34,465 nucleotides of DNA from a virus (taxonomy: Duplodnaviria > Heunggongvirae > Uroviricota > Caudoviricetes), in the IMG/VR virus record IMGVR_UViG_2869924733_000010. One strand, written 5' to 3'. Both the position numbers and the translations under genes were made by a program. A model generated the notes under the pieces. The model saw only the letters and a list, made by a program, of their open reading frames with translations. It searched no databases and was not told where the DNA came from. Below are positions 3,592-32,813 of the stretch, in pieces; within the stretch, counting starts at the first letter, position 1; every line of letters begins with the position of its first letter.

Positions 3592-6038
3592 TTAACCGTC
3601 ATGCATCATGCTGGCACGGGCGCGCGCTCGTTTATCCCGCTCGTATTTTTCGAGCGCATCCTGTAACTGGCGGTCAAGCTGTGTCCCCGGCGCAGTACCA
3701 CCGGTCAGGCTGATGTGATATTCGTTTTTACTCTGGTCCACATAAGAGCGGCCAGCCGGTGCCGTGACCGGCTGATAAGCCTGATAGCCTGCATAAGAGC
3801 TGGTCGCCGGAATATAACCACCGGTGCCATACGTGGCGGCATGAGTTCTGGCGGCGGTCTGGTCAAGTGTGTCTGACTCTTTGTTGATGACGCCGAGTTT
3901 TTCCAGTACCCAGTCAATACCGCTGCGCAGTTTGTTGAACGCATTAAGCGGCAGCATCAGCGCGTCAGCCAGTGCCTGCCCGAACATGACGCCCGTGTCA
4001 CGGCAACGGTTCAGGGTGTCCTGGGTGGCTTTGACCGGTGCAATCAGGTTTTTAAACCACTGCCACGCGGCCTGTAACTTTTCACCCAGCCAGTCAAACA
4101 CCGGCTTAAGTGGCGTGAACAGTTCCCCCACCGGCGCAAATGCCGCTTTCAGCCCTTCAACCACACCGCCGAAGAATACGCTGACAGGCTCCCAGTATTT
4201 ACGGATAAGCAACGCCCCGGCGACAATGGCGGCCACCACGGCCACAACCGGCCAGCTAATCGCCCCGATGGCCGTCATAACAGCACTGCCAACCGTCGTG
4301 AAGATTGCCCCCATTGCGCCTGCTGCCGCGATAATGGCATTGATGCCGGTGATAACCGGCCAGGCTACAAGACCAATGGCACCGATGATGCCAGTCAGCA
4401 CCAGTGCGCCACCGGCAATGAGGCCGATAGTTGACGCCAGTGATTTGTTTTTCTGTATCCAGCCGTCGAGTTTTAACACATACTTTGTGGCCGTCTGCGT
4501 GAGCTTACGCAGCGCGCCTTCCTGCTGGTCAAACAGGTCAGTCCCTACCGCCTCATAAGCGGACTGAAACTCCTTAAAGTCACCGCCGAGGTTGTCCTGC
4601 ATGATATTTACCAGCTCCGCGGTCTTCCCGTCTGAGGCTTTAAACGCAGCGGTCAGTTTGTCCAGCCTTCCGGTTGAGGCGGCAGTCATCAGCACAGCAG
4701 CGGCTGAGCTGGCCTCCTCCCCGAAAATGGTTTTCATGTATTCAGCCTGCTGGGCAGTACCGAGCCGGTTTTTATCAAAACTGGCCTGCATTTCTTTCAG
4801 AATGGTAAATACTGGCCGGGTGTTTCCCTTGCTGTCTGAGGTTTTCACACCAAGCTCTTTCAGTGCATCCCATGCTTTTCCCGTCGGTGCCTGCAGGCGG
4901 CTTAACACGGCACGGCTTCCCGTCCCCGCCATTGAACCGGTAATTTTTGCATCATGCAGTGCCCCGACCATTGCGGCGGTTTCTTCAATGCTGACACCGG
5001 CATTTTTTGCCACAGGTGCGGCATAGGTCAGCGCATCGCTCATGCCGTCAAAATCGGCGGCGGTTTTGTTCATCGTCATGGAGAGAACATCCCCGATATG
5101 AGCAACCTTATCGTTTGAAAGCTGAAAGGCGGATTTCATCCCCATCAGCAGGGCGGCGTTTTCTTCCATCGTGCGGCGGTTCGCCAGCGCCATATTCAGC
5201 GTGACCGGCGTTGCCGCCTGAATGGCATCAACATCTCCACCCGCTTTCGCAATGATAATCTGCGCACCGGCCGCATCATCCGCTGAGGCGGCGGTATTGT
5301 CACCGAGCTGGCGCGCCTGCTTGCGTAGCGCGGCCATTTCGGCGGAGTCTTTTGCCACTCCTAGCACGGCCTGCAATTCTGAGTTTTTCTGCGCAAACTC
5401 ATAACCGGGCATCAGCAACTTAACTCCGGCCATCGTTCCCGCCGCCGCAATCCCCACACCGGCAGCGCCTACTGAGGCCATATTTCCGGCCAGTTCCTTT
5501 CCGGCCTGATAACGCTGTTTTACTGCGTTAAGTTTTGCCTGTTGCGCACTGACACGCGCCAGCGCGTCGCGCTGACGGTTAAGTTGTGCGGTGGTTTCAC
5601 TGATACGGTTTTTCAGTCCCTGCTCATCATGTGCAAGATTGCGGGTATTAATTCCCACAGCGGCCAGTTCCCGCTGCTGGCGTTTAACGGAATCCGTCAG
5701 GCGGTTATATTTCGCCTGTAAGTCCTCCGCCGCACGCTTTGCGGATTCCAGCACTTTCGCCTGAGCACGGGTGGGACGTTCGGTGTTTTTAAACTGTGTG
5801 GCAAGGGCTTCGGCCTCCTGCCGTGCCTTTTCAAGTGCATGACCAGTCACGGCGAGCTGTGCACTGGTCTTGCGAAATCCCTCAATACGGGATGCGTGAC
5901 CGTTCAGCTCGCGCAGTGATTTTTGTGTTTCCCGGATATCCCCGACAGCGACTTGCTCGCTGTGCGGATGGATTTAAACGGGCGGGATGCCTGGTCAACA
6001 GCCCTGAGCAATACCTGTAATTTTACATTGTTACTCAT
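3592..6038 (-). pseudogene. T: Tail tape measure gpT with a 1-nt frameshift near the 5' end (or sequencing error)
   Basis: ATG at 6038 encodes MSNNVKLQVLLRAVDQASRPFKSIRTASKSLSG then leaves frame at a C4 run (5940..5943, plus strand); the 752 aa ORF 3592..5850 continues in another frame. Span is 2447 nt, one short of 2448 for an 815 aa protein. Confidence 0.7.
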
Positions 6039-6182
6039 TCGTGTTTCCGCTTCGCCGGAGCGCCTTTTCGCGCCATGTGATGAGTTCGGTCAGACTCATG
6101 GGATACAGTTCTGATGGCGGCCAGTGAAATATCACTGCCACATCCGCCATCAGCTCATCGACCGACAGATTTTTCGGGAACG

Positions 6183-6458
6183 TTACTGCACCGAGTTCGG
6201 CGACAAAAAACCGACCACCTTACCGGCCAGCGCCACAAGGTCAGGCAGTTCCAGCGCGGCGACTTCCTGCTCGGTCAGCATCGGTGCCGTCATGCGCGGC
6301 AGCACCTTAATCAGTGCATCGACTTCGGAGTTTGCGACCGCAGCCAGACTGACACCGCGCAGCGTCCCGGCATTGGGTTTCATCAGCGTGACCTGTTCGA
6401 TAACCTGCTCACCACGCTTGACCGGATTGTCCAGGGTAATCACATTTTCTTTGTTCAT
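6183..6458 (-). CDS. E: P2 gpE tail chaperone; E+E' made by -1 frameshift, extending to about 6031
   Basis: 91 aa ORF ending VVGFLSPNSVQ; the -1 frame from the slippery site stays open to a TAA overlapping the T start codon. Confidence 0.8.
   Translation of the reverse strand: MNKENVITLDNPVKRGEQVIEQVTLMKPNAGTLRGVSLAAVANSEVDALIKVLPRMTAPMLTEQEVAALELPDLVALAGKVVGFLSPNSVQ
6204..6210 (-). other. Programmed -1 ribosomal frameshift slippery heptamer TTTTTTG (E to E')
   Basis: Minus-strand GGTTTTTTGTCG inside the 3' end of E; E+E' 6031..6458 is 428 nt, i.e. 143 codons after the -1 shift. Confidence 0.7.
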
Positions 6459-6514
6459 GGTTTTCTCACTTCTGAATCAGGGTTAACCGGTCAGCCTGGC
6501 TGACCGGATGAAAA

Positions 6515-7032
6515 TCACAGGCCGATATTGCGGCGGTGTTGCTCCAGCCGGTCGACACCGTTCACCTTCTCAATCATGTTGATGGTGTCGATTTCGACCA
6601 GCTCCTTACCGTCCATCGTCAGCCGGAAATAGGTGCAGACCACGGAGATTTTCGACTCGGTGTCTTCTCCCTGTTTCCCCTCGCCGGTGTCGATTTCTTT
6701 CTGACGGCCACGCATGACCACCTCGACGGCCACCGTTTCGCCGGTATCGTCGCGCTGGTAAGAGCCAGCAAAACGAATCGGTACGGCATCCACGCCGGTT
6801 GCGGCGTAGAGCTCCCAGATAACCGAATCCGGGAAGCCCCGAGCGACCACTCCATTGACAGCGCATCGTCATCAAGGCCGAGGTCTACCGGTGCGCTTCC
6901 GTTCATCCCCGCACCGCGATAGTTTTCGAGTTTACGGGTCAGTTTTGGCAGCGTGACGGACTTTGCAACGCCCTGATAGCTGTAGCCGTTCAGAAAGACG
7001 TTCATTAACTTGAGTTTGCGCGGCATTGCCAT
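6515..7032 (-). pseudogene. FII: Tail tube gpFII with a 1-nt frameshift (or sequencing error)
   Basis: ORFs 6619..7032 and 6515..6850 carry the N- and C-terminal halves in different frames; break at MEWSLG/GFPDS, a C4 run at 6837..6840; span is 518 nt against 519 expected for 172 aa. Confidence 0.7.
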
Positions 7033-7044
7033 CGGTCAGGCTCC

Positions 7045-8235
7045 TTAATTGCTGTTAACCGAGGTGACCAGATTTGCCTGGTATTTATCGGTAATACGCT
7101 GGCGCAGGGTCAGGTTTTCGAGAGGAGGCACCGGTGTATAGTCGTAGTCGATATACAGTTTTCCGGCCTTGAGGGTTTCCGCATCGTTGGATTCTTCGCT
7201 GAACCAGCAGGTCGCATCCACGATATAGCCGTTTGTTTTCAGCTCACGGAATTTGGCATTGATGCCGTCAACGATGTCGCGAATCAGCGTTGCGGTGATG
7301 GGCTTGTCCACCGCCCACATGTGCGCCTCAGCCATCGTGTCGGCCAGCACCTGCGCGGTGCGGGTGTAGTTTTCAAAGAGGAACAGCGGGTCATCAGAGC
7401 AGGTACGGTTACCCCAGAAGCGGAAACCGTCACGGCGAATCAGCGTTGTGACGCCTGACTCGTTAAGCAGGTCAGCATCGGTGCCGGACTCCTGCAAATC
7501 CCAGAATACGGACGCGCTGATGCCGGTAACACCGTTCACCCCGACGTTGGACAGCGTTTTATGCCAGCCCTGCTCCTGGTCGATTTTAGCGCGCAGCCCC
7601 AGCGCACGGGCGGTGGCATACGCGGTGGAGGTGGTACTGGTGACCGTATCCCATGCGAGGAAATCCGGCCAGATGACCATCAGCTCACGCTGGCTGAAAT
7701 TCTGGCGGTAGGCTTTCACCTCGGAAATGGTTTTACAGCCCCATGCGCTGATATACCCGAAAGCGCGCAGCTTCTGACAGACTGATGCCAGTGCAACAGC
7801 CACCTCTTTGGTATCCAGTCCCGGCACACCGAGAATGCGCGGTTTAACACCGGTTACCGACTCCGCCGCCAGCAGGGCTTTCAGTCCGGTGTACTGACCG
7901 TTTTCGTCGGTGGTGCCGATGATATTGGAAACGGTCTGCGCGAGCTTCGTTTCTTCGTCGTCGCCGGTGCCGTCTTCCACGCGCACAACAACGGTGACCG
8001 GTTTTGACTGGTCAGCGATGGCCTGTAACGACGCCGCCAGCGTGCCTTTTTTACCGGCCTTTGCAATTGCGCTCTGCACATTGGTAATCAGCACCGGTTT
8101 ATTGAGGGGGAAGGTTTCCGCATCTGCATCGCTGGCCGTGCAGACCATGCCGACAATGGCCGTGGATACGGTGGAAATGACGCGGGTGCCGTCGTTAATC
8201 TCCAGCACCTGCACGCCGTGATGATAGTCACTCAT
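7045..8235 (-). CDS. FI: P2 gpFI tail sheath
   Basis: 396 aa, matches P2 FI. Confidence 0.9.
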   Translation of the reverse strand: MSDYHHGVQVLEINDGTRVISTVSTAIVGMVCTASDADAETFPLNKPVLITNVQSAIAKAGKKGTLAASLQAIADQSKPVTVVVRVEDGTGDDEETKLAQTVSNIIGTTDENGQYTGLKALLAAESVTGVKPRILGVPGLDTKEVAVALASVCQKLRAFGYISAWGCKTISEVKAYRQNFSQRELMVIWPDFLAWDTVTSTTSTAYATARALGLRAKIDQEQGWHKTLSNVGVNGVTGISASVFWDLQESGTDADLLNESGVTTLIRRDGFRFWGNRTCSDDPLFLFENYTRTAQVLADTMAEAHMWAVDKPITATLIRDIVDGINAKFRELKTNGYIVDATCWFSEESNDAETLKAGKLYIDYDYTPVPPLENLTLRQRITDKYQANLVTSVNSN

Positions 8236-8327
8236 CCGTTTAACTCCGTGGTTAATGGGTGCAACTATTTTCTGTTGTGCAGAGCATGAGACGCTATTTG
8301 ACCTGGCTGGTCAGGGGATGAAACAAC

Positions 8328-8357
8328 AGATAAAGAAAATGCGGGCAATTCGCCCGC
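8328..8357 (-). terminator. Intrinsic terminator between the hotspot and the FI promoter region
   Basis: Hairpin gcgggcgaattgcccgc followed by a T-rich tract on the minus strand. Confidence 0.55.
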
Positions 8358-8427
8358 CTGTCCTGATTTGTACTCACTCATTTTCCGCCTGACAATTTAC
8401 ATAGCCCAAATGCTATCAAATCTGACA

Positions 8428-8458
8428 GTCTGCTTTGAGCGAGGAGCGGACATTGAGC
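8428..8458 (+). repeat. Copy Z of a ~30 bp conserved motif (core TGA-N11-ACA)
   Basis: gtctgctttgagcgaggagcggacattgagc resembles the minus-strand copies at 14100..14135 and 18095..18130. Confidence 0.5.
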
Positions 8459-8531
8459 TTGGTCTCAAGTATGCTGATTTTTTTTAGCTAATATCTTGGT
8501 TTTTTGATCAATAGGTTGCTGGTCAGACCTA

Positions 8532-9684
8532 AATAGCTGCGCGGAATAGTAGATCATTTTGAGGGAACTTAGCCCGGATTGTGCGATCTGATCAATCGCC
8601 AAATCAAAACAAATCACCAACCGGACTGAGCAATGCCGATCATAGCACCAATTTCCCGTGACGAACGACGCCTGATGCAGAAAGCCATCCATAAAACACA
8701 CGATAAAAATTATGCCCGCAGACTGACTGCCATGCTGATGCTGCACCGGGGCGACCGTGTCAGCGACGTTGCCAGAACGCTCTGCTGCGCCCGTTCCTCT
8801 GTTGGACGCTGGATTAACTGGTTCACGCAGTCGGGTGTTGAGGGACTGAAATCATTACCTGCCGGGCGTGCCCGTCGCTGGCCGTTTGAGCATATCTGCA
8901 CACTGTTACGTGAGCTGGTAAAACATTCTCCCGGCGACTTTGGCTACCAGCGTTCACGCTGGAGTACAGAACTGCTGGCAATAAAAATCAATGAGATAAC
9001 CGGTTGCCAGTTAAATGCCGGAACCGTTCGCCGCTGGTTGCCGTCTGCGGGGATTGTGTGGCGAAGGGCTGCGCCAACTCTGCGTATCCGTGACCCGCAT
9101 AAAGATGAAAAGATGGCAGCAATCCATAAAGCACTGGACGAATGCAGCGCAGAGCATCCGGTCTTTTATGAAGATGAAGTGGATATCCATCTTCATCCCA
9201 AAATCGGTGCGGACTGGCAACTGCGCGGACAGCAAAAACGGGTGGTCACGCCGGGACAGAATGAAAAATATTATCTGGCCGGAGCGCTGCACAGCGGGAC
9301 AGGTAAAGTCAGCTATGTGGGCGGCAACAGCAAAAGTTCGGCGCTGTTCATCAGCCTGCTGAAGCGGCTTAAAGCGACATACCGTCGGGCGAAAACCATC
9401 ACGCTGATCGTGGACAACTACATTATCCACAAAAGCCGGGAAACACAGAGCTGGCTGAAGGAGAACCCGAAGTTCAGGGTCATTTATCAGCCGGTTTACT
9501 CGCCATGGGTGAATCATGTTGAACGGCTATGGCAGGCACTTCACGACACAATAACGCGTAATCATCAGTGCCGCTCAATGTGGCAACTGTTGAAAAAAGT
9601 TCGCCATTTTATGGAAACCGTCAGCCCATTCCCCGGAGGCAAACATGGACTGGCAAAAGTGTAGCGGTATTAAGCGCAGCTATT
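8532..9684 (+). mobile_element. IS630, complete (1153 bp), TA target duplication in a CTAG context
   Basis: Terminal inverted repeats aatagctgcgc / gcgcagctatt; TA at 8530..8531 and 9685..9686; reconstructed target gaccTAggat. Confidence 0.85.
8633..9664 (+). CDS. IS630 transposase (DDE, Tc1/IS630 family)
   Basis: 343 aa ORF recognised as IS630-family transposase. Confidence 0.85.
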   Translation: MPIIAPISRDERRLMQKAIHKTHDKNYARRLTAMLMLHRGDRVSDVARTLCCARSSVGRWINWFTQSGVEGLKSLPAGRARRWPFEHICTLLRELVKHSPGDFGYQRSRWSTELLAIKINEITGCQLNAGTVRRWLPSAGIVWRRAAPTLRIRDPHKDEKMAAIHKALDECSAEHPVFYEDEVDIHLHPKIGADWQLRGQQKRVVTPGQNEKYYLAGALHSGTGKVSYVGGNSKSSALFISLLKRLKATYRRAKTITLIVDNYIIHKSRETQSWLKENPKFRVIYQPVYSPWVNHVERLWQALHDTITRNHQCRSMWQLLKKVRHFMETVSPFPGGKHGLAKV

Positions 9685-9755
9685 TAGGATCAGATATAAA
9701 AAGTATGATTTTATTCTCCCCACATAGATGAAAAAAACAAAGAAGCATAACTTTT

Positions 9756-10332
9756 ATGACCAAGACAAATAGGCACAACTTTCCTCCAAGCGTTGTAGGT
9801 AAGGTAGCAGAGCGCGCTACATATATTTGTAGCAATCCCTCTTGTCATAGGGTAACAATCGGCCCGGATCAATTGGCGGAAAATCTTTCTATCAAGACGG
9901 GTGAGGCGGCGCATATCTGCGCGGCGAGCCCTGGCGGACCGCGCTATGACATGTCTCAGTCAGAAACAGAGCGGAAGAGCATAAAAAATGCTATATGGTT
10001 GTGCGGAGCTTGTGCTGATTTAGTTGATAAGAATGGCGGTATGGGCTACCCCGCCGAGTATTTGCGAAAATGGAAACGTGACCACGAATCACTAATGAAG
10101 GAGTGCTTGGAGGGAGGAAAGAGGCTAATGTTTCAATTTCTATCGCATCGCCCAGACGAGAAAATTGCTCTGCGGTTGATCCATTTATTGGAAGACAAGA
10201 GTTCTCTTTATCTGCCATATGCTCAAGAGGATCCAGCACGAGTCTCGGATTCTTTGAAGGAGCTCCGACTCTCTCTTACGGCGATTCGCTCCGAGATTGC
10301 ACCTGAGTCTCCGCTATCGTTGATCGTCGAGT
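9756..10332 (+). pseudogene. 5' part (codons 1..192) of an HNH-like zinc-finger protein gene, interrupted by IS911
   Basis: CSNPSCH ... AAHICAASPGGPRYD ... NAIWLCGACADLVDKN matches the HNH pattern CxxC..H..N..CxxC with the last His replaced by Ala; the ORF tail after residue 192 is IS911 sequence. Confidence 0.6.
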
Positions 10333-10667
10333 TGAAGTGGCACACTGAATTTGGCCACCTGAACAGAGGTGATATGCTCACCTCAGAACAACACAGGTGC
10401 TCCAATGAAAAAAAGAAATTTTAGCGCAGAGTTTAAACGCGAATCCGCTCAACTGGTTGTTGACCAGAAATACACGGTGGCAGATGCCGCCAAAGCTATG
10501 GATGTTGGCCTTTCCACAATGACAAGATGGGTCAAACAACTGCGTGATGAGCGTCAGGGCAAAACACCAAAAGCCTCTCCGATAACACCAGAACAAATCG
10601 AAATACGTAAGCTGAGGAAAAAGCTACAACGCATTGAAATGGAGAATGAAATATTAAAAAAGGCTAC

Positions 10668-12796
<2,129 letters not shown>

Positions 12797-12804
12797 CCAC
12801 TTCA

Positions 12805-12983
12805 AGTCAATTGTCCGTGCGTGCCGACACTATATGAATTCAACGCCAGATCGGCCGGGCATTGAGGAGCTTAACTTCTCCCTCGGCGCAGTTCGTAAGG
12901 TAGTAGGAATTAACATCGGAGAACTATTGAAACACTATGAAATCCAGGTGAGTCACGAATTGCATTCTATTATTCCTAAATGA
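12805..12983 (+). pseudogene. 3' part of the IS911-interrupted HNH-like gene
   Basis: Removing IS911 and one AGT copy joins ...IVE to SIVRACRHYMNSTPDRPGIEELNF...IIPK in frame, giving a ~250 aa protein. Confidence 0.6.
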
Positions 12984-13144
12984 ATTTTAACCAATAACTC
13001 AAGTTGGCGAAGCCTGAAAAAGATGAGCTTCGCCATTTTTCTCGGACCTTGAGTAATTAGTGCAGACACAATAAGCATATTGTTTTCGAGTGCACGACGA
13101 ACGTAGTTTTCGATACTTTGAGTATTATAGCTTCAACTTTTTAC

Positions 13145-13930
13145 TTACATCAAAAATAACTTACAATATTTGTAAGTTGCTTTGTGTACGAAAATGCTTG
13201 CGTCAACTCTTGACATCGGATTTTTTAATATCCCTCCGGAACTTCCCTTTCCATGTCTCGCAAGATACCCTAACAGTTCAAAGCTATTAGCAGTGCCCGT
13301 GAATCTGCTGATTTCCTTTTCATCAATATTAAAAGCCATGCTAATTACTTTATCTCTCTGATATTTCTTGCCTTTATAAGCGTCGGGGAAATTTAGTATA
13401 CCTTTCACATATTTATCATATACATATTCTCTAATTGTTTCCCACAAACGATAAAGATTAACCCAATCATAACCTAAGGCACACATACCTAAAACAACAC
13501 GTAAGGATTCATGTTTAGATGATAAATTAATTAATCGTGAAAAATTATCAGCGCGAGGGTGTGGTTGCTGTATGTCATGGAAATTAAAGGGGTTTACCTG
13601 AGTTACATCCATTGATTTAAAGCCGCATATTTCCGAGTAATTAATGCCTTCACTTCCAGAAATAGAAAGAGGACCAAAAGATTGATATCTTTCAAAACCA
13701 TAAAGAACGCTAAGTGCGCCGTTCATGAGCATCAACAAACCTTTTAACTTGGAAGCCAATTCATTTGGGTCGGATATGATATTCAAATGAGGAGATGAAA
13801 GTAAATGAATATCTGTTTGCCCTAAATCAGAGTCAGAATCATCATTTATAGAGAAATCATTCGACCAAACTCCACATAATCCTTTAACAAATCCTGTAGA
13901 TGGAGTAAGTAAAAAACTATAATCGTACAT
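13145..13930 (-). CDS. Hypothetical protein, 261 aa, AT-rich orphan cargo gene
   Basis: Long ORF in low-GC DNA convergent with the HNH-like gene; no family recognised. Confidence 0.6.
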   Translation of the reverse strand: MYDYSFLLTPSTGFVKGLCGVWSNDFSINDDSDSDLGQTDIHLLSSPHLNIISDPNELASKLKGLLMLMNGALSVLYGFERYQSFGPLSISGSEGINYSEICGFKSMDVTQVNPFNFHDIQQPHPRADNFSRLINLSSKHESLRVVLGMCALGYDWVNLYRLWETIREYVYDKYVKGILNFPDAYKGKKYQRDKVISMAFNIDEKEISRFTGTANSFELLGYLARHGKGSSGGILKNPMSRVDASIFVHKATYKYCKLFLM

Positions 13931-14099
13931 AACTCAAATCCCTCTTTTTTATATCCTAAATGGAATACAAAAATTATTGTTTATTTGTTATGTTCAATAT
14001 ACTCACATAACCGAAAACTTTAACACGCTCATTCTAAGTGAACTAAATCTAAAGATATACCTTTGAAAACTGAAAACTCAATGCTGGCAACGTCCGCTC

Positions 14100-14135
14100 C
14101 TGGCACAAAGCGAACATTCCTTGACGTCCTGTCAG
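14100..14135 (-). repeat. Copy X of the ~30 bp conserved motif (core TGT-N11-ACG), ~190 nt upstream of the 261 aa ORF
   Basis: 28 of 35 positions identical to the copy at 18095..18130. Confidence 0.55.
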
Positions 14136-14200
14136 GGAAACCCACCTGGACGTTCAGGTGATTCTGTCGATTATAGTCATAAAAAAGCCGCCCCGGAGGG

Positions 14201-15501
14201 CTGAGGAATTCCCAGAAAACGAGACAGACATAGCATTATGTGATCTACTGATTTGTGCCAACAATTCAATGAGATCACTGCTATGCCTGTTCATAAAGTA
14301 TGTCAGAATTTCTTCCGGGATGCCTTAGCACCATTTCATCAGTACCGACAAAATGCCCTGATGGATGCCACAGTGGCGTTAATCAACGGAGCATCTCTGA
14401 CGCTGACCAGTATCGGACGTTTTTTCCCGGGTAATGCACAAGTTAAGAATAAGAGCAAACGTATTGATCGCCTCATGGGTAATGAGGCGCTCCATCGCGA
14501 TATTCCAATGATTTTCAGGAATATCACTTCAATGCTGACACGGCAGTTATCTTTATGTGTAATAGCCGTAGACTGGAGTGGCTATCCCTCCCAGGAGCAT
14601 CATGTTCTTCGTGCCAGCCTTCTGTGTGACGGGCGTTCCATTCCGTTATTGAGTAAGGTTGTTCCTTCTGAAAAACAAAATAATCCATTGATACAACATG
14701 ATTTCCTTGATTCCCTTGCTCAATCCCTGCCCCCCGATGCCAGGGTTATTATTGTCACGGATGCTGGATTTCAGAGCGCATGGTTTCACCATATTACTTC
14801 TCTGGGCTGGGATTTTATTGGTCGGATCAGAAATAACGTTCAGTATTGCCTCGATAACGCGCCTGAAAGATGGTTAAAAGTGTCGGATAGCCCTGAATGT
14901 AAAACACCGGAATATATGGGGGCTGGAAGGCTGGTTAAAGAAAGGAAAAAAAGCATCCGGGGGCATTTTTACACCTATAAGAAATCGGCAAAAGGGCGAA
15001 AAAAGAAACGTTCGAAAGGTCAGAGTGGTTTAAACAAAACAGACAAAGAACAGAGCAAATCAGCAAAAGAAGCCTGGTTGATCTTCAGCAGTACAAATGA
15101 CTTCAGAGCGCGAGAAATCATCAAGTTATACAGTCGGCGAATGCAGATAGAGCAAAACTTTCGTGATGAAAAGAACGGGCGCTTCGGATTTGGTCTTCGG
15201 GCCAGCAAAAGTCGTTCAACAGGAAGAATTCTGGTTCTGAGTCTGCTGGCAACGTTGAGCACTATCGTAATGTGGTTACTCGGTTATCACGCTGAAAATA
15301 AAGGGTTACACCTGAAATATCAGGCTAACAGCATTAAATCCCGGCGGGTTATCTCATATCTGACGTTAGCGAAGAATGTTCTTCGACACTCGCCACTTAT
15401 TTTAAGACGAACAGTACTGAGCACAGTTCTAAACCATCTGTCCAGAACCTACCGAAATATGGTGCTGGTTTATTAGCAGTAATTTTGTGGGGATCCCTCA
15501 G
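14201..15501 (+). mobile_element. IS10-like element (IS4 family), 9 bp duplication CCCGGAGGG
   Basis: Ends CTGAGGAATTCCCA / CTGAGGGATCCCCA (inverted); duplication at 14192..14200 and 15502..15510. Confidence 0.8.
14253..15476 (+). CDS. IS10-like transposase
   Basis: 407 aa; KRIDRLMGN, VTDAGFQSAWF and YSRRMQIEQNFRDEK align with IS10 transposase. Confidence 0.8.
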   Translation: MCQQFNEITAMPVHKVCQNFFRDALAPFHQYRQNALMDATVALINGASLTLTSIGRFFPGNAQVKNKSKRIDRLMGNEALHRDIPMIFRNITSMLTRQLSLCVIAVDWSGYPSQEHHVLRASLLCDGRSIPLLSKVVPSEKQNNPLIQHDFLDSLAQSLPPDARVIIVTDAGFQSAWFHHITSLGWDFIGRIRNNVQYCLDNAPERWLKVSDSPECKTPEYMGAGRLVKERKKSIRGHFYTYKKSAKGRKKKRSKGQSGLNKTDKEQSKSAKEAWLIFSSTNDFRAREIIKLYSRRMQIEQNFRDEKNGRFGFGLRASKSRSTGRILVLSLLATLSTIVMWLLGYHAENKGLHLKYQANSIKSRRVISYLTLAKNVLRHSPLILRRTVLSTVLNHLSRTYRNMVLVY

Positions 15502-15659
15502 CCCGGAGGGACGGCTATAAACTCGCCAGTTAACAAGCTGATTTTACCGCTTACGCGGTTCTGTCGTTGCGGTGTTCGCTGACCCACTGCGCCTTTACAG
15601 TTTATCGCTTATGAATCCATGAGCCTTAAATGTCCTGACAAAATCCTCATAGCGCGCAA

Positions 15660-16277
15660 TCATCCCCCCGATGTTTCACGCACATTTTGCTGATGAAAGC
15701 GGAAGTTTGCCTCCGATTCAACACTCTTACTCTTCCAGTCATGGGGAAGGCTTAGCATCACTGGCTTTCTGTTCGGGTAATCAACACTCATAAATGGTAG
15801 CGTACTATCTACGTATGCGGTCATAGCGTCCAAAAAAGCGTCTTTCGCACCATTCACTTCAGTATTGAATAACCGATACTTTTCACCGCTAAATTTTTCA
15901 GCTTTTTCAATGTTTAAGCAAACATCTTGCCGTATACCGCTCAGGTAGCTCTGCTCAACCCATTGAGTAGTATCCTCATAAGGCAGCAATTCAAGGATCT
16001 GGTCGATTATCTTCAGATCATGTTCATCTTGCTTTTTTTTTACAGGGTCCTCAGTAGATTCATTGGATGTGTGGTAAACGTTGGTGGTCTGATTAATATC
16101 CCGCCCGGCCTGGTTCACATCACCCTCGGTTTTCTTTGCCTTCTGTTTTATGTTGTTTTGCTGTCTGATTCTATATGTAACACCGCCCCCAATACCAAAC
16201 AGTGCCAGTACGCCGACTAATAAGCTAAGATAGGTAGCTGCGTCTGCACCAAAATGTGCATTAAGCCATTCAGTCAT
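15660..16277 (-). CDS. Hypothetical membrane-anchored protein, 205 aa (N-terminal TM helix), cargo gene
   Basis: Hydrophobic segment YLSLLVGVLALFGIGGGV then a polar ~170 aa domain; stop codon sits directly on a G6 run, so the 3' end is uncertain. Confidence 0.55.
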   Translation of the reverse strand: MTEWLNAHFGADAATYLSLLVGVLALFGIGGGVTYRIRQQNNIKQKAKKTEGDVNQAGRDINQTTNVYHTSNESTEDPVKKKQDEHDLKIIDQILELLPYEDTTQWVEQSYLSGIRQDVCLNIEKAEKFSGEKYRLFNTEVNGAKDAFLDAMTAYVDSTLPFMSVDYPNRKPVMLSLPHDWKSKSVESEANFRFHQQNVRETSGG

Positions 16278-16363
16278 TTGAACTATGTCCTTACAGTGTG
16301 AGTAAGGATTATAATAACAGAGCTAACTTGCGCAGAAACGAAAAAAGGCAGGTGGATTTGCCC

Positions 16364-17269
16364 CTATATTTCCAGACATCTGTTATCACTTAACCCATTA
16401 CAAGCCCGCTGCCGCAGATATTCCCGTGGCGAGCGATAACCCAGCGCACTATGCGGATGCCATTCGTTATAATGCTCGAACGCCTCTGCAAGGTTCTTTG
16501 CTGCCGTTAACCCGTCTGGTTTGGGCATGATACTGATGTAGTCACGCTTTATCGTTTTCACGAAGCTCTCTGCTATTCCGTTACTCTCCGGACTCCGCAC
16601 CGCCGTGTTCTTCGGTTCAAGTCCCAACATCCGGGCGAACTGGCGTGTTTCATTAGCCCGGTAGCATGAACCATTATCCGTCAGCCACTCCACTGGAGAC
16701 GACGGAAGATCGTTGCCGAAGCGGCGTTCCACCGCTCCCAGCATGACGTCCTGTACTGTTTCACTGTTGAAGCCGCCGGTAGTCACCGCCCAGTGCAGTG
16801 CCTCACGATCACAGCAGTCCAGCGCGAACGTGACACGCAGTCTCTCTCCGTTATCACAGCAGAACTCGAACCCGTCAGAGCACCATCGCTGATTGCTTTC
16901 TTTCACGGCCACTCTGCCTGTATGTGCCCGTTTCGATGGCGGTACAGCAGGTTTTCGCTCAAGCAACAGCGCATTCTGGCGCATGATCCGGTAAACACGT
17001 TTGGCATTGTTCGCAGGCATACCATCAAGTTCTGCCTGTCTGCGAAGCAGCGCCCATACCCGACGATAACCATACGTGGGCAGCTCTCCGATAACATGGT
17101 GTATACGGAGAAGCACATCCGTATCATCAGTGTGACGACTGCGGCGGCCATCCATCCAGTCATCGGTTCGTCTGAGAATGACGTGCAACTGCGCACGCGA
17201 CACCCGGAGACAACGGCTGACTAAGCTTACTCCCCATCCCCGGGCAATAAGGGCGCGTGCGCTATCCAC
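16364..17269 (-). CDS. insD: IS2 transposase InsD
   Basis: 301 aa, recognised as IS2 InsD. Confidence 0.9.
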
Positions 17270-17592
17270 TTTTTTGCCCGTCCATATTCAACGGCTTCTT
17301 TGAGGAGTTCATTTTCCATCGTTTTCTTGCCGAGCAGGCGCTGGAGTTCTTTAATCTGCTTCATGGCGGCAGCAAGTTCAGAGGCAGGAACAACCTGTTC
17401 TCCGGCGGCCACAGCAGTAAGACTTCCTTCCTGGTATTGCTTACGCCAGAGAAATAACTGGCTGGCTGCTACACCATGTTGCCGGGCAACGAGGGAGACC
17501 GTCATCCCCGGTTCAAAGCTCTGCTGAACAATTGCGATCTTTTCCTGTGTGGTACGCCGTCTGCGTTTCTCCGGCCCTAAGACATCAATCAT
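17227..17592 (-). CDS. insC: IS2 InsC
   Basis: 121 aa from internal Met [13 protein letters not shown]. Confidence 0.85.
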
Positions 17593-18094
17593 CTGTACTC
17601 CAATGACTAGTCTAAAAACTAGTATTAAGACTATCACTTATTTAAGTGATACTGGTTGTCTGGAGATTCAGGGGGCCAGTCTAGCAGGGGAGGTAACCCC
17701 CCTGCCTTTAATCAAGTTCCTCCATCCCTTACGGGCGTCCGGTCAGTTGCTTGATGACAACCAGACCAGCTAGCATTATTTGCATCACCAGTAAGACTGT
17801 TGTTAGCGTTATCACTTCGACGTCTCCTCTTCCAGGAGAGCGCCACACGTAGTAAGTGCTTTTGGTTCTACCCGCCCCCCTCACTCCGCATACCATTAGT
17901 TAGCAGGTACAAGCAGCACTCTTTCGTGTGGTAAGCAAACAGGACAGCACTGGACTGACGCCTTGAGCTTTAATATTTCCTTCCGATCCATACAACTAGG
18001 TCTGTTAAAAGCCCCTAGGACGAATTCTACAGAGATGGCTATGGTGCAGGTTTCGGCTATAGGGCTCTTTGATGTAATCGAGGGTCATAACGTT

Positions 18095-18130
18095 GGCAAT
18101 GTCTGCTCCTGGCACAGAGCGGACTATCAG
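18095..18130 (-). repeat. Copy Y of the ~30 bp conserved motif (core TGT-N11-ACA), just downstream of the G stop
   Basis: ggcaatgtctgctcctggcacagagcggac; overlaps a 9 bp stem hairpin ggcacagag..ctctgtgcc. Confidence 0.55.
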
Positions 18131-20810: not shown

Positions 20811-20820
20811 TATTCCTCAC

Positions 20821-22252: not shown

Positions 22253-22256
22253 GGTT

Positions 22257-24389: not shown

Positions 24390-24393
24390 TGAT

Positions 24394-24420
24394 AAAAGGC
24401 CAATAACTGGCCTTTTATTT
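24394..24420. terminator. Palindromic bidirectional terminator between the insert and S
   Basis: aaaaggccaataactggcctttt with T-runs on both strands. Confidence 0.6.
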
Positions 24421-24491
24421 ATTAACATGAAAATTCAAAATAAATTATGCTAATCAATTGATTTCTATCTTATATTCTCAGATGATTAAAG

Positions 24492-25937: not shown

Positions 25938-26350
25938 GGTTCCCGCCCCTCAAGACGCTGACGGCAGGCCGTGCGTATCAGCCGGAAAAACAGCGACGCT
26001 ACGAGATAAATCAGCGCGGTAAAAATCCACCCGGCAGCGACCAGCGAGATAAATGTCGCCACCATCACAACCAGAGCCGCCGCCCGTCTGCGCCACGGCA
26101 CCGGCTGCAAAAACAGCGACGTGACAATCTTCACGGCCAGCGATTCCGGCGGCAGCTCCCGCCCGTAGAGTTCCAGTACATACTCAGTGGCATACACGCC
26201 AATACCACCGGCAACCACACAGATAACCGTCGCCAGAATCGCCCAGGCGGCGACAAAATTGACGGCCACGCTCTGCGGGTAAATCAGGGACAGTGCCAGC
26301 ATCAGCGCCAGCGACACGTTCAGCATCAGTGAAAGGGATAATTTCTTCAT
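25925..26350 (-). CDS. lysA: LysA lysis-timing membrane protein
   Basis: 141 aa multi-TM protein in the P2 lysA position. Confidence 0.75.
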   Translation of the reverse strand: MKKLSLSLMLNVSLALMLALSLIYPQSVAVNFVAAWAILATVICVVAGGIGVYATEYVLELYGRELPPESLAVKIVTSLFLQPVPWRRRAAALVVMVATFISLVAAGWIFTALIYLVASLFFRLIRTACRQRLEGREPCQG

Positions 26351-26364
26351 GGTGTTTACTCCGT

Positions 26365-26862
26365 TTAAGCAGGTACGCCGCCAGCGGTACGCCAGACGGT
26401 GACCAGTTTTTCCAGTGAATGCTCACGCTGACCGTAACCGGCACCCGGCAGGGACGCCCAGATATTGCGACAGCGTGAAATGGCGCGCTCAATGCGTCCC
26501 GCCCGGATGTCATCCAGTGCACCGCGTTCACGGATCAACTGAATGGCAAGTCTGTCCTGTGACAACGGACTGAAATCCGGCAGGGCAAGCTGTTTGCGGT
26601 AGTGCGGCCAGAACAGGTAAAGCTGCTGATAGCGACCGGAGGCCGTGGATTTTTCACCGCGACGGTTAAACACCTTCGCCGGTCGGCCATGCGCGAACGG
26701 GTGGTCACTGTAGTCGGTGAAAATTTCCGGCTTTCCGTCCAGTCCGGTGACTATCACGTCATAGCCCCGTTTTTTCGTCAGCGGATGATTCGCCGTCCCT
26801 TCGGACACGGCCAGCATGTCGAGAAAGGCGGCGATATTCTGATGCGTGTTAATAACCGGCAT
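26365..26862 (-). CDS. K: P2 gpK endolysin
   Basis: 165 aa. Confidence 0.85.
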   Translation of the reverse strand: MPVINTHQNIAAFLDMLAVSEGTANHPLTKKRGYDVIVTGLDGKPEIFTDYSDHPFAHGRPAKVFNRRGEKSTASGRYQQLYLFWPHYRKQLALPDFSPLSQDRLAIQLIRERGALDDIRAGRIERAISRCRNIWASLPGAGYGQREHSLEKLVTVWRTAGGVPA

Positions 26863-27143
26863 TACGGTTTCCCCCTGCCCTTAAAGCGGCGCTGAATGGC
26901 AATCTCAATCACCTGATAACCGGCGATACCCAGCATGGAGCCAATGCCGCACACCGCAGGCAGTGACAGGTCAGGAAACTGCACCAGAACAACACCGGCA
27001 ACCATCGAGACAAAACCACCGAGCAACATGCGCCCGATAAACAGACGCGGGGTGATGGGTTCACCACCGGCAAGCACCTTGCCGACAACAATCAGCACCC
27101 CAATCATGAAAAGCGACAGAACGCTTTTTTCTTCTGCTGTCAT
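26862..27143 (-). CDS. Y: P2 gpY holin
   Basis: 93 aa, membrane protein. Confidence 0.85.
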   Translation of the reverse strand: MTAEEKSVLSLFMIGVLIVVGKVLAGGEPITPRLFIGRMLLGGFVSMVAGVVLVQFPDLSLPAVCGIGSMLGIAGYQVIEIAIQRRFKGRGKP

Positions 27144-27146
27144 GCG

Positions 27147-27440
27147 TTACTCCCACAGATTGACAGTTTCAGCCACGGGCGCGGTCTGAACGTCGGGCAG
27201 TTCGACGGCGGTGCCGTGCGGCAGCACGCCATTCACCCACGGCAACCAGAACGGCAGCAGTTCGCGTTTTTTCGCGGCCTTCAGCTCTTTTGAATAAATT
27301 GCTTTCAGTGTGCGCTGGTCTACGGCGAGCTTAACCAGCATCTGCTCATAGACAGTTGCATGTCGCAGCGGGGCTGCTTCCCGCTGCGCGGTCATCGCTG
27401 CCGAGACCCGCATCATGTGGCGCTGTGCGGGACTCGTCAT
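27147..27440 (-). pseudogene. M'-'X deletion fusion: first ~73 codons of terminase small subunit M joined to the last ~24 codons of tail protein X; gene L absent
   Basis: N-terminus MTSPAQRHMMRVSAAMTAQ... is gpM; C-terminus ...PHGTAVELPDVQTAPVAETVNLWE is the gpX end; junction near 27221; the ORF sits between N and Y where M, L and X belong. Confidence 0.7.
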
Positions 27441-27443
27441 CGG

Positions 27444-28515
27444 TTACGCTCCCGGCTCTGCGGTCGCTTTAGCCGGTGTGGAGAAATCACCGACCTTAAT
27501 TTTCTCCACCAGACAACCGGCTGCATAGTCTTCCACCACGTAATCAATGTTCATTGACTCGTAGTTCTCCACGCGGTCGAGTTTCGGGTTTTCCACAATC
27601 ACGCGGCGATGGCTGTCATCCATGTAGTAGATGGACAGGTTTTCCAGCTTCGTGATGAGCATCGCATCCGCCGGGAAGTACGGGACGCGTACCGCCGGCA
27701 GGTTACCGATGCGTTTCTGGCTGATGATGACATCAGCGGCCAGCATTTCGCTGTTGTCCTGCTCTTTGTTGACGATGGGGAAATACTTGTCCGCCAGTAG
27801 CTGACGTCCCACAATCACCACAAGGTCAGGGTCTTCCTGATACCACGGTTCAATCAGGTTGTTGGTCGCATCCATCACCAGTGCATCAAGGCTGGCATAA
27901 TCGCCGCCCTTACCCACGCGGATAACCTCAGAGGTGGTGCGCCCTTCCTCGTCAGTGACCTTGCTCATCACGCGCGCCGGGGCTTCATTGCGGTATTTCT
28001 GCAACCAGCCGACCGCCACATCCTGCAACATCGGATTGCTGCTGCGGTCAGAAGTTTCGGCACGCTTCACGCCGTTAAAACCGGCCATGATGAAATCAAG
28101 GGACTGGCGTTTGATAATGGCGTTACGGACACGGAGCTGGAAATCCTGATAACGCGCCCACAGGTCAAGCGTTTTGTAGCGGATATAAAAATCGAAGTTA
28201 ATCTGGTCGCATTCGTACTTGTTAGACGCCAGCTTCGAGAAGTCCTTCGGCTGACGCTCAGTGCCACCGGCGGTGTCGGTGGTGCTGGCGATGGAGCCGG
28301 TGACACCGATGCCAATTTTTTCCCCTTTCATTTCGCTGACCGGCACAATGTTGATGCGGGTCAGAAAGTCAGAGGACTCCTGCATGGTGTTCATCAGGGT
28401 CTGGGTGACCGACGGTTCAACGGTGAATTTTTTCGACACATCACCGGCGTCGATGCCGTTCAGTTCGGCAACACGGGACAGGTAGGCATTAAATTTAAAG
28501 CGGGTTTCCTGGCGC
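27444..28515 (-). pseudogene. N: Major capsid gene N, 3' portion, cut off from its start codon by IS4
   Basis: Matches P2 gpN from codon 2 on; ATG plus codons 2..5 sit at 29941..29955 on the far side of IS4; in-frame TAG at the junction. Confidence 0.85.
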
Positions 28516-29940
28516 TAATGCCAGTCAGTTAAGCAACTGACTGGCTCTTTTTCGGGGCTGTGGGGTATTTCCAGGGCCTCTCCTTTACCACTCTCGGGAA
28601 GGCCCTTTCCCTTCTCGTCGGTAATTTCACAAGTTGTCCCATACTTGCAAGATCGCGCATCAGCTCCGGTATACGTCCCGGTGAAGCGCCCTGCAATGTC
28701 ATCAGCATTCTCATCACCATTCCGCATGATTCTGAGAAACTCAGTTGATTCGGCCAGTAACCTTTCAGATGTTCCGCCATTTTAATCATCTGATATCTCA
28801 CCAGATTATAAGCCAGTAAGACACCCCACAGCTCTTGCTCCACAAGCTCCGGCTTTTTACTTCTCAGCGTCAGCCTGCTCAGTTGCATCGTCTGTTTTAT
28901 CTCCCTGTATCCCAGTTCGATTTCCCAGCGATGACTGTACAGATCCGCCATTTCTCCTCCGGGGAAGCGCATGGCGTCCGTCATCGACGTCAGCAGATGG
29001 CAGACTTTTCCTTTGCGCGTCACGGTCAGCAGGCGGGCTGTCACTTCATTTCCCAGTCCCGGCCACTTTTTTCGTGCCTGCGAGCTGGTTTTCAGCTTCA
29101 CCAGATGATCGCCTTTACCCAGTTTTCTGAACTCTTCATATTGCGCTCCCTTTCTGAGAGGTATCATCCAGTGGCGGTGTTCTCCCGCCAGGCTCCAGGC
29201 ATTTAACAGTCCCAGTGAGTAATAACCTTTATCCATTAACGTCAGAGTGTTATCGCCGGTTTGTTCTATAAGTTGCTCAGCAAGCTCATTTTCGCTGTTC
29301 TTCATCGTGCCGAAGGCTGCAGCCGTCAGCAGATGGCTGGTCAGTTCCATCTGGCAGACCATTTTGACCTGCGGGTAGAGCGCCGGGTTCCCGGCATGTG
29401 TCTGGCGGGGGAAGGCTGCATCGTTCTCTGGTGTATCCGGTGTGCGCCAGAACACACCATCGATGGCCAGCAGGGTCAGGCCGCACCAGTGCGGATGCGG
29501 CGTGGCGTTATGCCAGAGCTGCGCTGTTTTCGTGAACACGCGGCGGACAGCCTCACTTCCCAGGCGCTGGCGGGCCTGAATAACGGCACTGGGGGCAACG
29601 AAGGGGCGATTGCCCGGCAGCATGATGTCCAGGCGATTCACAATCTGGTGAAGAGGTTCTTTACGCTCAAGCGCCATGCCAACAATACACCAGACCATCA
29701 TTTCGAGGGGAAGACGGCGCTTGCGTAGCGTTACAGTACCTGATTCGGCAAGGCAACGAGAGATGAGTTCGGGGTCGAGGTAATCCCCCAGAGAAGTCAG
29801 TGGGTTACGCAGAGAATCGTAACGGGATACCAGATCAAGAGCCTGTCCAATGTGCATAAAAAATCCGGAAACAAGTGAGCGTTTCCGGATTCTTACACAG
29901 CCACTGGATCGGTCAACTGATCCTTAACTGATCGGCATTA
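28516..29940 (-). mobile_element. IS4 with a 13 bp duplication GGTTTCCTGGCGC
   Basis: Ends taatgcc... / ...ggcatta; duplication at 28503..28515 and 29941..29953; boundaries accurate to about 1 bp. Confidence 0.85.
28529..29857 (-). CDS. IS4 transposase
   Basis: 442 aa, recognised as IS4 transposase. Confidence 0.9.
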
Positions 29941-30013
29941 GGTTTCCTGGCGCATAGTTTTTCCTGAAATTAAGGGTTAATCGTGAAGGTTTTCCCGGAC
30001 TGACTGACGCCGG

Positions 30014-30868
30014 TCAGCAGTTCGTCATCAGGGCGTCACCGCCACCGCCGGTGGCTTTGCTGCGGCGCTGCTGGGTCAGACTTTCGGTGCTGTCGAGACT
30101 GTTTTTCAGGCGGGTGAATGCCTGGCCGGTTTCATCCGCCCTGTCAGTCACATCCTGCTTAAGTGCGGAAAAGGCGGTTTCCATCTCAGCGAGGCGCTGC
30201 TCAGTGGCGCTCAGTTTTTCCTGCACATGTTCAGCAACAGCGGTCACCGCTTCATGCACGTCATTCAGGCGGGCGTCATCGCTGGCCTGTTTGCGGCCAA
30301 AAATGGACTTCACCTTTTCGGTCAGGGCGGTGAACACGGTTTCAGGCAGGTCTTCAAATTCCAGCTCAACGGGCGTTGCCACTGAAATAAGGTTCTCAGG
30401 GCTTAATTTGAAGCGGTTCAGAGGGTTGTGTTTTGCCGTGCGGCAGAACTCCAGAGATTCCGTGCCGAGGCTTGCCGGGTCATCGGTGACGGCCAGCCCC
30501 ACCAGATAACATTTGCCGGTGTTGGCAAAGTTCGGCTGAATTTCCATTGAGGTGTAGACCTTCTGCGCGGCCTTGTTCATCGCGATAAGGTCATCGGTCG
30601 GGGTGATTTTCGCAAACAGCGCCCATTTGCCTTTCAGCGCCGAATCGTCATCAATCTTTTCGGCCTTCAGTTCGACCACATCGCCATAACGTTTAAAAAT
30701 ACCGTCAGGCAGGATGCCGCGCAGATGTTCCAGGTTAATGCGGCAACCATAGACACGCGGGTCAAAGGTTTCGGCCATTTCCTGAATATCCTGCGCACTG
30801 ATGACACGCCCGTCACAGGTGTCACCCTCAACGCCGATACGAAAGAATTTTGAGACTTTTTTTGCCAT
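30014..30868 (-). CDS. O: P2 gpO capsid scaffold
   Basis: 284 aa from internal Met MAKKVSKFFRIGVEGD. Confidence 0.85.
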   Translation of the reverse strand: MAKKVSKFFRIGVEGDTCDGRVISAQDIQEMAETFDPRVYGCRINLEHLRGILPDGIFKRYGDVVELKAEKIDDDSALKGKWALFAKITPTDDLIAMNKAAQKVYTSMEIQPNFANTGKCYLVGLAVTDDPASLGTESLEFCRTAKHNPLNRFKLSPENLISVATPVELEFEDLPETVFTALTEKVKSIFGRKQASDDARLNDVHEAVTAVAEHVQEKLSATEQRLAEMETAFSALKQDVTDRADETGQAFTRLKNSLDSTESLTQQRRSKATGGGGDALMTNC

Positions 30869-31041
30869 TGTCAGGAGTCCTGAATAGTGATTAGAGGAGT
30901 CACATGTCGGCATCAGTTTCCCGACGATGCGCATCCTCCGCCATCAGTCCCGGATGGCTTATCACTGACACAACAGCACCTTAGCGAATCGCGGGGCGCG
31001 ACTCAGTAGCCTTGCCGTGTATTCATCACGGCGAGGTATTC

Positions 31042-32813
31042 ATGACCATCACCACAGACACCACTCTTTTGCACGACCCGCGTCGTCAGGCGGCGCTGCT
31101 GTACTGGCAGGGGTTTTCCGTGCCGCAGATTGCCGCCATGTTGCAGATGAAACGCCCGACGGTGCAGAGCTGGAAACAGCGCGACGGCTGGGACAGCGTT
31201 GCCCCCATCAGCCGTGTCGAAATGAGTCTGGAAGCGCGGCTGACCCAGCTCATTATCAAACCGCAGAAAACCGGCGGTGACTTCAAGGAAATTGACCTGC
31301 TGGGACGCCAGATTGAACGACTGGCGCGGGTCAACCGCTACAGTCAGACCGGCAACGAGGCAGACCTTAATCCGAACGTCGCTAACCGCAACAAAGGCGG
31401 GCGTCGCAAACCGAAAAAGAATTTTTTCAGTGACGAAGCCATCGAAAAGCTGGAGCAGATTTTCTTTGAGCAGTCTTTCGAATATCAGTTGCACTGGTAT
31501 CGCGCCGGGCTTGAGCACCGCATCCGCGATATCCTGAAATCCCGCCAGATTGGCGCGACGTTTTATTTTTCCCGCGAGGCGCTGCTGCGCGCCCTGAAAA
31601 CCGGTCATAACCAGATTTTTCTGTCGGCCAGTAAAACACAGGCGTATGTGTTCCGCGAATACATCATCGCCTTTGCCCGGCTGGTTGACGTTGACCTGAC
31701 CGGTGACCCGATTGTCCTGGGCAATAACGGCGCAAAACTGATTTTTCTCGGCACCAACTCCAACACCGCGCAGAGCCATAACGGCGACCTGTACGTCGAC
31801 GAGATGTTCTGGATCCCGAATTTTCAGGTACTGCGTAAGATGGCATCAGGTATGGCCTCACAGAGTCACCTGCGCTCGACCTATTTCTCCACCCCGTCCA
31901 CGCTGGCGCACGACGCCTACCCGTTCTGGTCGGGTGAACTGTTTAACCGGGGACGCGCCAGCGCCGCCGAACGCGTGGAAATCGACATCAGTCATAACGC
32001 CCTTGCCGGTGGGCTTCTCTGTGCGGACGGCCAGTGGCGGCAGATTGTCACCATTGAGGACGCCCTGAAAGGTGGCTGCACGCTGTTCGACATTGAGCCG
32101 CTTAAACGCGAAAACAGCGCCGACGATTTTAAAAACCTGTTCATGTGTGAATTTGTTGACGACAAGGCATCGGTATTCCCGTTCGAGGAGCTGCAACGCT
32201 GCATGGTCGACACGCTGGAAGAATGGGAAGACTATGCGCCGTTTGCCGCCAATCCGTTCGGCTCCCGACCGGTATGGATTGGTTACGACCCGTCACACCG
32301 TGGCGACAGCGCCGGATGCGTGGTACTGGCACCGCCGGTGGTGGCCGGTGGCAAATTCAGAATACTTGAGCGTCACCAGTGGAAAGGTATGGACTTTGCC
32401 ACCCAGGCGGAATCCATCCGCAAACTCACCGAAAAATACAACGTCGAATACATCGGTATTGATGCCACCGGCCTCGGTGTCGGCGTGTTCCAGCTTGTGC
32501 GCTCGTTCTATCCCGCCGCGCGCGACATCCGCTACACGCCGGAAATGAAAACCGCAATGGTGCTCAAGGCAAAAGACGTTATCCGCCGTGGCTGTCTGGA
32601 ATATGACGTCAGCGCCACCGACATCACCAGCTCGTTCATGGCTATCCGCAAGACCATGACCAGCAGCGGACGCAGGCCACCTATGAGGCCAGCCGCAGCG
32701 AGGAAGCCAGCCACGCCGACCTCGCCTGGGCGACCATGCACGCCCTGTTAAATGAGCCACTCACCGCCGGTATCAGCACTCCGCTGACATCCACCATTCT
32801 GGAGTTTTACTGA
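31042..32813 (+). pseudogene. P: Terminase large subunit gpP with a 1-nt frameshift near the 3' end (or sequencing error)
   Basis: From MTITTDTTLLHDPRRQAALLYW; after ...SSGRR the frame is lost at 32674..32678. The alternate frame TYEASRSEEASHADLAWATMHALLNEPLTAGISTPLTSTILEFY runs to a TGA overlapping the Q ATG at 32813. Confidence 0.7.

Follow-up and report, generated by a model that had tools for sequence, protein, structure and literature searches.

Two of three one-nucleotide frameshifts in a grounded Shigella P2-like prophage are shared by its lineage, and the third is most likely a consensus error

The 34,465-nucleotide stretch of DNA analysed here, which is the IMG/VR virus record IMGVR_UViG_2869924733_000010 and is referred to throughout as the window, contains a grounded (defective) P2-like prophage situated between yegQ/trhP and yegR in the Shigella dysenteriae chromosome CP027027.1. 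Three late genes of this prophage, T (tail tape measure), FII (tail tube) and P (large terminase), have each lost a single nucleotide and with it their reading frame. Set against independent assemblies of the lineage, the losses in FII and P are very probably real and the loss in T is very probably an error in the CP027027.1 consensus. A sequence-only reading of the window had treated the three lesions as one type, had attributed them to homopolymer undercalling in the assembly, and had offered real decay of an already defective prophage as the alternative. Each explanation turned out to apply to part of the set. Undercalling probably accounts for T, where the shortened run was found in CP027027.1 alone, but not for FII and P, where the deletions are shared; decay accounts for FII and P, where the same deletions occur in many independent assemblies, but not for T.

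RESULTS

The window contains a P2-like prophage from Shigella dysenteriae

The CP027027.1 chromosome (GCA_002943855.1) was 100% identical to positions 1–18235 and 21042–34465 of the window with zero gaps, and the names carried by proteins exactly matching those of the window were Shigella dysenteriae or Shigella. P2 (NC_001895, genus Peduovirus) served as the reference for blastn and tblastn. Blastn revealed a colinear late region of approximately 24 kb with 96.5–97.6% nucleotide identity, extending from the attP core (window 1507, equivalent to P2 24382) to cos (window 34035, equivalent to P2 position 1). Gene order within this region followed that of P2, ogr-D-U-T-E/E'-FII-FI ... G-H-I-J-W-V ... 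S-R-lys-K-Y ... N-O / P-Q-cos, with lysC/B/A as the lysis genes between R and K. A total of 27 P2 late proteins were recovered, all in the P2 order. Protein identity was mostly 94–100%; the tail-fibre gene G was 75% identical and the C-terminus of H had diverged.

Three late genes have each lost one nucleotide

The T, FII and P spans were 2447, 518 and 1772 nt, compared to 2448, 519 and 1773 nt in P2, which bears out the one-nucleotide shortfall described in the sequence-only reading; each span leaves a remainder of 2 when divided by 3. Blastn against P2 placed a one-base gap at position 5940 in T (TAT-CCCCGAC in the window and TATCCCCCGAC in P2), at 6839 in FII (GCC-CCG and GCCACCG) and at 32676 in P (GCAG-GCC and GCAGCGCC). 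No other indels were detected by this comparison in P2-homologous coding sequence, as the remaining differences in length between the window and P2 were confined to promoter or cos-proximal non-coding DNA or to the diverged G and H genes. Tblastn with the P2 proteins broke each of the three proteins at its lesion, T into residues 1–33 and 33–815, FII into residues 1–66 and 66–172, and P into residues 1–544 and 546–590, with 98–100% identity to P2 on either side of each break.

The longest open reading frame (ORF) of T (3592–5850) starts with GTG and encodes 752 aa. In P, the frame in use before the shift stops at a TAA at 32749–32751 to give a product of 569 aa. The natural C-terminal 45 aa of P are encoded in the other frame, which extends to a TGA at 32811–32813 that overlaps the ATG of Q at 32813, exactly as had been read from the sequence.

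The earlier description of all three sites as G/C runs was correct for T, where C5 has become C4, and incorrect for P, where no run exceeds 2 nt. The FII site reads CCCC in the window, CCACC in P2 and CCCCC in the closest relatives, which makes true shortening of a run from C5 to C4 the probable event. Coordinates of these sites and of the other features discussed below are collected in Table 1.

The FII deletion is shared by all assemblies of the lineage that were read

The T and FII sites were read in eight other assemblies of the same lineage: AAMJ02000002, which we take to be the Sanger-era draft of S. dysenteriae 1012, AMJQ01000267, AKNA01000058, UYIS01000021, DAJVRE010000073, ACBCCG010000069, Logan ERR5982220, representing some 20 similar contigs, and one IMG/VR locus. 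All eight, comprising draft, short-contig and large-contig records, carried C4 at the FII site. Among 120 IMG/VR P2-like loci, the FII site was C5 in 64, CCACC in 53, CCGCC in 2 and C4 in 1. The sole C4 locus was of the same lineage (99.9% identical to the window), and none of the 119 loci from beyond the Shigella lineage had C4. The nearest of the non-lineage relatives carried C5, and CCCCC was likewise present in fiAA91-ss. We conclude that the FII C4 allele is real and inherited within the lineage, and that FII is a true pseudogene. Read on the coding strand, the tract has shortened from G5 to G4, a change apparently fixed in the lineage. The tail tube protein is predicted to be cut short some 65 residues into its sequence, and with such a truncation no tail tube could form.

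Protein-level look-ups were less useful for this gene. Other assemblies of the lineage annotate only a 111-aa C-terminal FII ORF, and the 137-aa N-terminal ORF had no exact-sequence match because gene callers record the 111-aa ORF. The number of copies of the 111-aa ORF (162 index blocks, 135 contigs) was considered as support for inheritance within the lineage and then dropped, as unrelated C4 prophages also yield this ORF. Lineage support for FII was taken from the DNA-level checks of same-lineage loci. The repaired 172-aa FII protein is identical to P2 gpFII and was present on at least 1000 contigs, making it uninformative with respect to lineage.

C4 at the FII site was also observed in several unrelated P2-like prophages that were 94–97.5% identical to the window and situated in differing cargo contexts, among them those of CP044188.1, BNFN01000001.1 and the DSOU22-1 metagenome scaffolds. 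One interpretation of this observation is that the FII G5 tract is a recurrent inactivation hotspot that grounds P2-like prophages, with at least five unrelated prophages sharing the G5 to G4 change. We regard this interpretation as doubtful because noisy assemblies are among the carriers and because the allele was missing from the 119 IMG/VR loci. Were the events real and independent, prophage domestication would preferentially begin with loss of the tail tube at this tract.

The P deletion is shared and no intact copy of the allele was found

The exact 569-aa P product was found in 41 index blocks and on 35 contigs. Contigs of 2–5 kb that end at IS4 (insertion sequence 4) on one side and at an IS630-family element on the other accounted for 38 of the 41 blocks, a pattern that would be expected of short-read assemblies. 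The P contigs came from many sequencing runs, including ERR5982232, ERR5982187, ERR592282, ERR5984627 and ERR6005877, and the same product was encoded in the draft genome QWSB01 and in a second complete chromosome, CP026824.1. At the DNA level, CAGGCC was present in 10 of 10 loci fetched from this look-up and in one further IMG/VR contig. When the missing C was restored to the P allele of the window, the resulting 590-aa sequence had no copy in a collection of 15 billion proteins. Of the 120 IMG/VR loci, 107 had C and 12 had T at this position, and the single locus lacking the base was 100% identical to window 31293–34465. The undeleted context, CAG(C/T)GCC, contains no homopolymer.

From these data we conclude that the mutation in P is fixed and inherited and that P, like FII, is a true pseudogene. 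Loss of the single C from CAGCGCC would exchange the last 45 residues of the terminase for 24 out-of-frame residues. Because the downstream frames of FII and P are 100% identical to P2, both events are recent relative to the divergence from P2.

The T contraction is private to CP027027.1

In contrast to the C4 allele of FII, the C4 allele of T was not found in any of the eight other same-lineage assemblies, all of which carried C5. C5 was also present in 96 of 96 IMG/VR P2-like loci containing the site. Six same-lineage assemblies aligned over T–FI (up to 4.6 kb) were 99.89–99.98% identical to the window with exactly one gap each, and the ERR5982220 contig differed from the window by 0 mismatches and 1 gap across 8,555 bp. 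The truncated 752-aa T product occurred on only one contig, CP027027.1. When one C was restored, the exact 815-aa sequence was found on 97 contigs, under the name Shigella tape-measure protein, and in 168 index blocks. The T lesion is thus a one-base homopolymer contraction private to one assembly, and a lesion shared between assemblies whose allele has no intact counterpart, as expected of a lineage-inherited pseudogene, was seen for FII and P only. The sequence-only reading had allowed that high-accuracy reads backing the present run lengths would make these genes true pseudogenes; backing from other assemblies was obtained for FII and P and not for T.

Homopolymer indels that fragment genes have been described in long-read bacterial assemblies (PMC12007338, PMC8011154). 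The T lesion resembles these errors in being a one-base contraction of a 5-nt run that a single complete-chromosome assembly has and the draft and short-contig assemblies of the lineage lack. The FII and P lesions also resemble them but differ in not being private to one assembly. The C5 to C4 change in T would accordingly represent a one-base homopolymer undercall in the CP027027.1 consensus, and T of the sequenced strain is likely to be an intact 815-codon ORF. We hold it to be highly probable that the T frameshift is an assembly artefact and that the gene is intact in the organism.

Error profiles of the two complete chromosomes

Over the approximately 43 kb of CP027027.1 that were compared, two further runs were each one base short in this assembly only, with C7 reduced to C6 and A7 to A6. 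The C6 run (window 15664–15669) is C7 in the same-lineage assemblies AAMJ02 and AMJQ01. It lies in an ORF on the minus strand (15660–16277) and truncates a hypothetical protein to 205 aa, compared to 227 aa in AAMJ02 and AMJQ01. This run was rejected as clean proof of assembly error, as the tract is naturally length-polymorphic and the evidence correspondingly weak. The A6 run (29858–29863) is in the leader of IS4, directly upstream of the transposase ATG, and is A7 in canonical E. coli IS4 and in CP026824.1. As a result of the A6 run, IS4 is 1425 nt long in the window, and this contraction is probably another undercall. RefSeq places the start of the IS4 transposase upstream of the A run.

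CP026824.1 carries the same prophage and was compared with CP027027.1 over 21.7 kb, corresponding to window 21042–34465 and approximately 8 kb beyond it. CP026824.1 differed by 8 one-base deletions and 5 substitutions, with 7 of the 8 deletions in G/C runs of 4–5 nt. The genes fragmented in this way were Y, the M' remnant, the IS4 transposase, an IS630 transposase and gatZ, and the deletions were derived in CP026824.1 wherever P2 or canonical IS4 could serve as outgroup. This pattern suggests that CP026824.1 is an unpolished long-read consensus.

Outside the window, the two chromosomes also differ in gatD. A TT in CP027027.1 corresponds to a single T in CP026824.1, and the gene is split into ORFs of 159 and 193 aa in the former and intact (346 aa) in the latter. 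The difference is unpolarised and may reflect either a real pseudogene or an insertion error.

Alternative explanations for the three lesions

Undercalling at all three sites, in a strain with intact T, FII and P, would be consistent with three one-base losses at G/C-rich spots flanked by protein sequence 98–100% identical to P2. However, the FII C4 and P CAGGCC alleles recur in assemblies that are independent and of varied type and contiguity, the P site is not a homopolymer, and the P allele of the lineage was found in intact form in no assembly; this explanation is therefore most improbable. Functional recoding, by a programmed ribosomal frameshift or by transcriptional slippage, could in principle restore a full-length protein at one or more of the sites, and P2 does rely on programmed -1 frameshifting close by, in E/E+E'. 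Recovery of the frame after loss of one base would require slipping by -1, but a slippery heptamer was present at 0 of the 3 sites. Moreover, intact alleles dominate P2-like phages (119/120, 119/120 and 96/96 for the FII, P and T sites, respectively), and N, M and L function has been lost in the prophage regardless. The true E/E' signal is elsewhere and unchanged: its 30-nt context is identical in the window and P2, and it is intact and not among the three lesions. Programmed recoding is thus excluded for practical purposes.

A more serious competitor is that all three lesions are real, with T carrying a recent, private G5 to G4 frameshift in the sequenced isolate. T would be under no selection in a prophage that was already non-functional, G/C runs are natural -1 frameshift hotspots, as the real FII lesion shows, and CP027027.1 is much cleaner than CP026824.1. 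Further points weigh against our assignment of T to error and of FII and P to mutation. As the comparison was one of assembly consensus sequences, the T C4 allele may have arisen by real mutation in the sequenced isolate. No publication was found on CP027027, CP026824, CP026872 or their GCA numbers. The 205-aa form produced by the C6 run is shared with metagenome scaffolds and Logan contigs that are unrelated, where it is beside an IS200-type transposase, and FII C4 is present in several unrelated prophages, some from visibly noisy assemblies, which marks that site as prone to error or mutation. Allele distributions across the independent assemblies were observed directly, and it is from these that we infer the choice between error and private mutation at T, as well as the platforms. 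Against a private mutation stands the finding of T C4 on 1 contig versus 97 with the intact form. Relative to the nearest short-contig assembly there were 0 substitutions in 8.5 kb, such that the indel would be the sole difference. In addition, every private difference of CP027027.1 in the window was a one-base contraction of a run of at least 5 nt (T, C7 to C6 and A7 to A6), and no private substitution was found relative to the nearest assembly where one exists, a spectrum that points to error and not to mutation. A private mutation in T is thus unlikely, and we favour the explanation in which T is a consensus error and the FII and P losses are genuine. The latter two would be mutations that became fixed in the prophage lineage and were vertically inherited, and they probably belong to the ordinary neutral decay of a prophage on which selection no longer acted.

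Other lesions of the prophage

Apart from the one-base deletions in T, FII and P, the prophage differs from P2 by an IS4 insertion in N, a 1256-bp deletion in M-L-X, IS-rich DNA that replaces Z/fun, and the lack of int, C, cox, B, A, old and tin, with an IS630-family element and yegR following cos. The capsid gene N is interrupted by IS4 after its fifth codon, which cuts N from its start codon, with a 13-bp target duplication (P2 4082–4094). The 1256-bp deletion (P2 5376–6631) removed L entirely, along with most of M and the 5' half of X. Approximately 9.6 kb of IS-rich DNA has taken the place of Z/fun and of the H C-terminus. No homology to the P2 early region was detected in the window by blastn or by tblastn with P2 proteins. 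Homology to P2 ends 63 bp beyond cos, at window 34079, and the rest of the window is filled by a 92-aa gene fragment; beyond the window, the source chromosome continues with an IS630-family transposase and, after it, yegR. The set of functions that a complete inducible genome would have (int, C, cox, A and B together with intact N, M, L, FII and P) is not present. Because N is split by IS4, M, L and X are affected by the deletion and the early region is gone, no particles are possible. The element is a defective remnant and not a functional phage.

Table 1. Coordinates of prophage features in the window
Feature	Position	Strand	Description
Host flank, yegQ/trhP to att core	1..1506	+	Prophage starts at ~1507, equivalent to P2 attP position 24382
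Gene T, tail tape measure	3592..6038	-	2447 nt; two frames, 33 aa + 783 aa
T frameshift site	5940..5943	-	C4 (G4 on coding strand); C5 in P2 and all relatives
E/E+E' programmed -1 frameshift heptamer	6204..6210	-	TTTTTTG; P2 annotated site at 19685
Gene FII, tail tube	6515..7032	-	518 nt; frame change after codon ~65
FII frameshift site	6837..6840	-	CCCC; CCACC in P2, CCCCC in closest relatives
IS-rich replacement of P2 Z/fun region	8451..18097		IS630-, IS30-, IS3- and IS4-family transposases and cargo gene fragments
Deletion junction	27222..27227		1256 bp missing, P2 5376-6631
IS4 insertion	28516..29940	-	442-aa transposase; Pfam Nterm_IS4 + DDE_Tnp_1
Gene P, large terminase	31042..32813	+	1772 nt; two frames
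P frameshift site	32674..32678	+	AGGCC; C between two Gs lost, CAGCGCC to CAGGCC

Relationship to the E. coli remnant

Window positions 1–1900, comprising yegQ/trhP, att and ogr, were covered to at least 80% in 5,422 of 5,426 complete E. coli genomes, with the phage gene annotated as ogrK. An ogr-containing P2 remnant at the yegQ site is thus nearly universal in E. coli, and it resembles the prophage of the window in its chromosomal site, with yegQ/trhP followed by ogr. The classical E. coli remnant keeps just ogrK and a fragment of D; the Shigella lineage of the window retains approximately 24 kb of the late region. The closest of the 5,426 complete E. coli RefSeq genomes was 98.6% identical with both the T and FII sites intact, and none was an exact match.

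Cargo gene fragments

ORFs at window 9756–10424 (plus strand) and 13145–13930 (minus strand) are cargo remnants of the P2 Z/fun hotspot. A cargo ORF of 222 aa represents a shortened form of a DUF6650 protein of 250 aa and matched the models for the PADLOC candidate PDC-M68A and for an HNH-type effector nuclease. The 222-, 261- and 227-aa ORFs form a three-gene cluster in other genomes, and the cluster is split by IS elements in the window. At the opposite end, window 34187–34465 (minus strand) encodes a C-terminal fragment of a DUF4209 / PADLOC PDC-S39-like protein (DUF7380 in E. coli prophages). This fragment is located at the old/tin hotspot just beyond cos and is cut by the IS630-family element in the source chromosome.

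DISCUSSION

One-base frameshifts that look alike within one prophage can have differing causes. Comparing independent assemblies of the same lineage separated the true pseudogenes, FII and P, from the probable consensus error in T without recourse to reads. Both processes are well known, IS- and frameshift-driven decay in Shigella on the one hand and homopolymer indels in assemblies on the other, and neither lesion type is new in kind. The grounding of prophages through IS insertion, deletion and frameshift has been reviewed (PMC6379469).

The value of the result is mostly practical. In the annotation of CP027027.1, FII and P should be counted as pseudogenes and T probably should not. The biology is that of the expected decay of a cryptic Shigella prophage, driven by IS elements and frameshifts.

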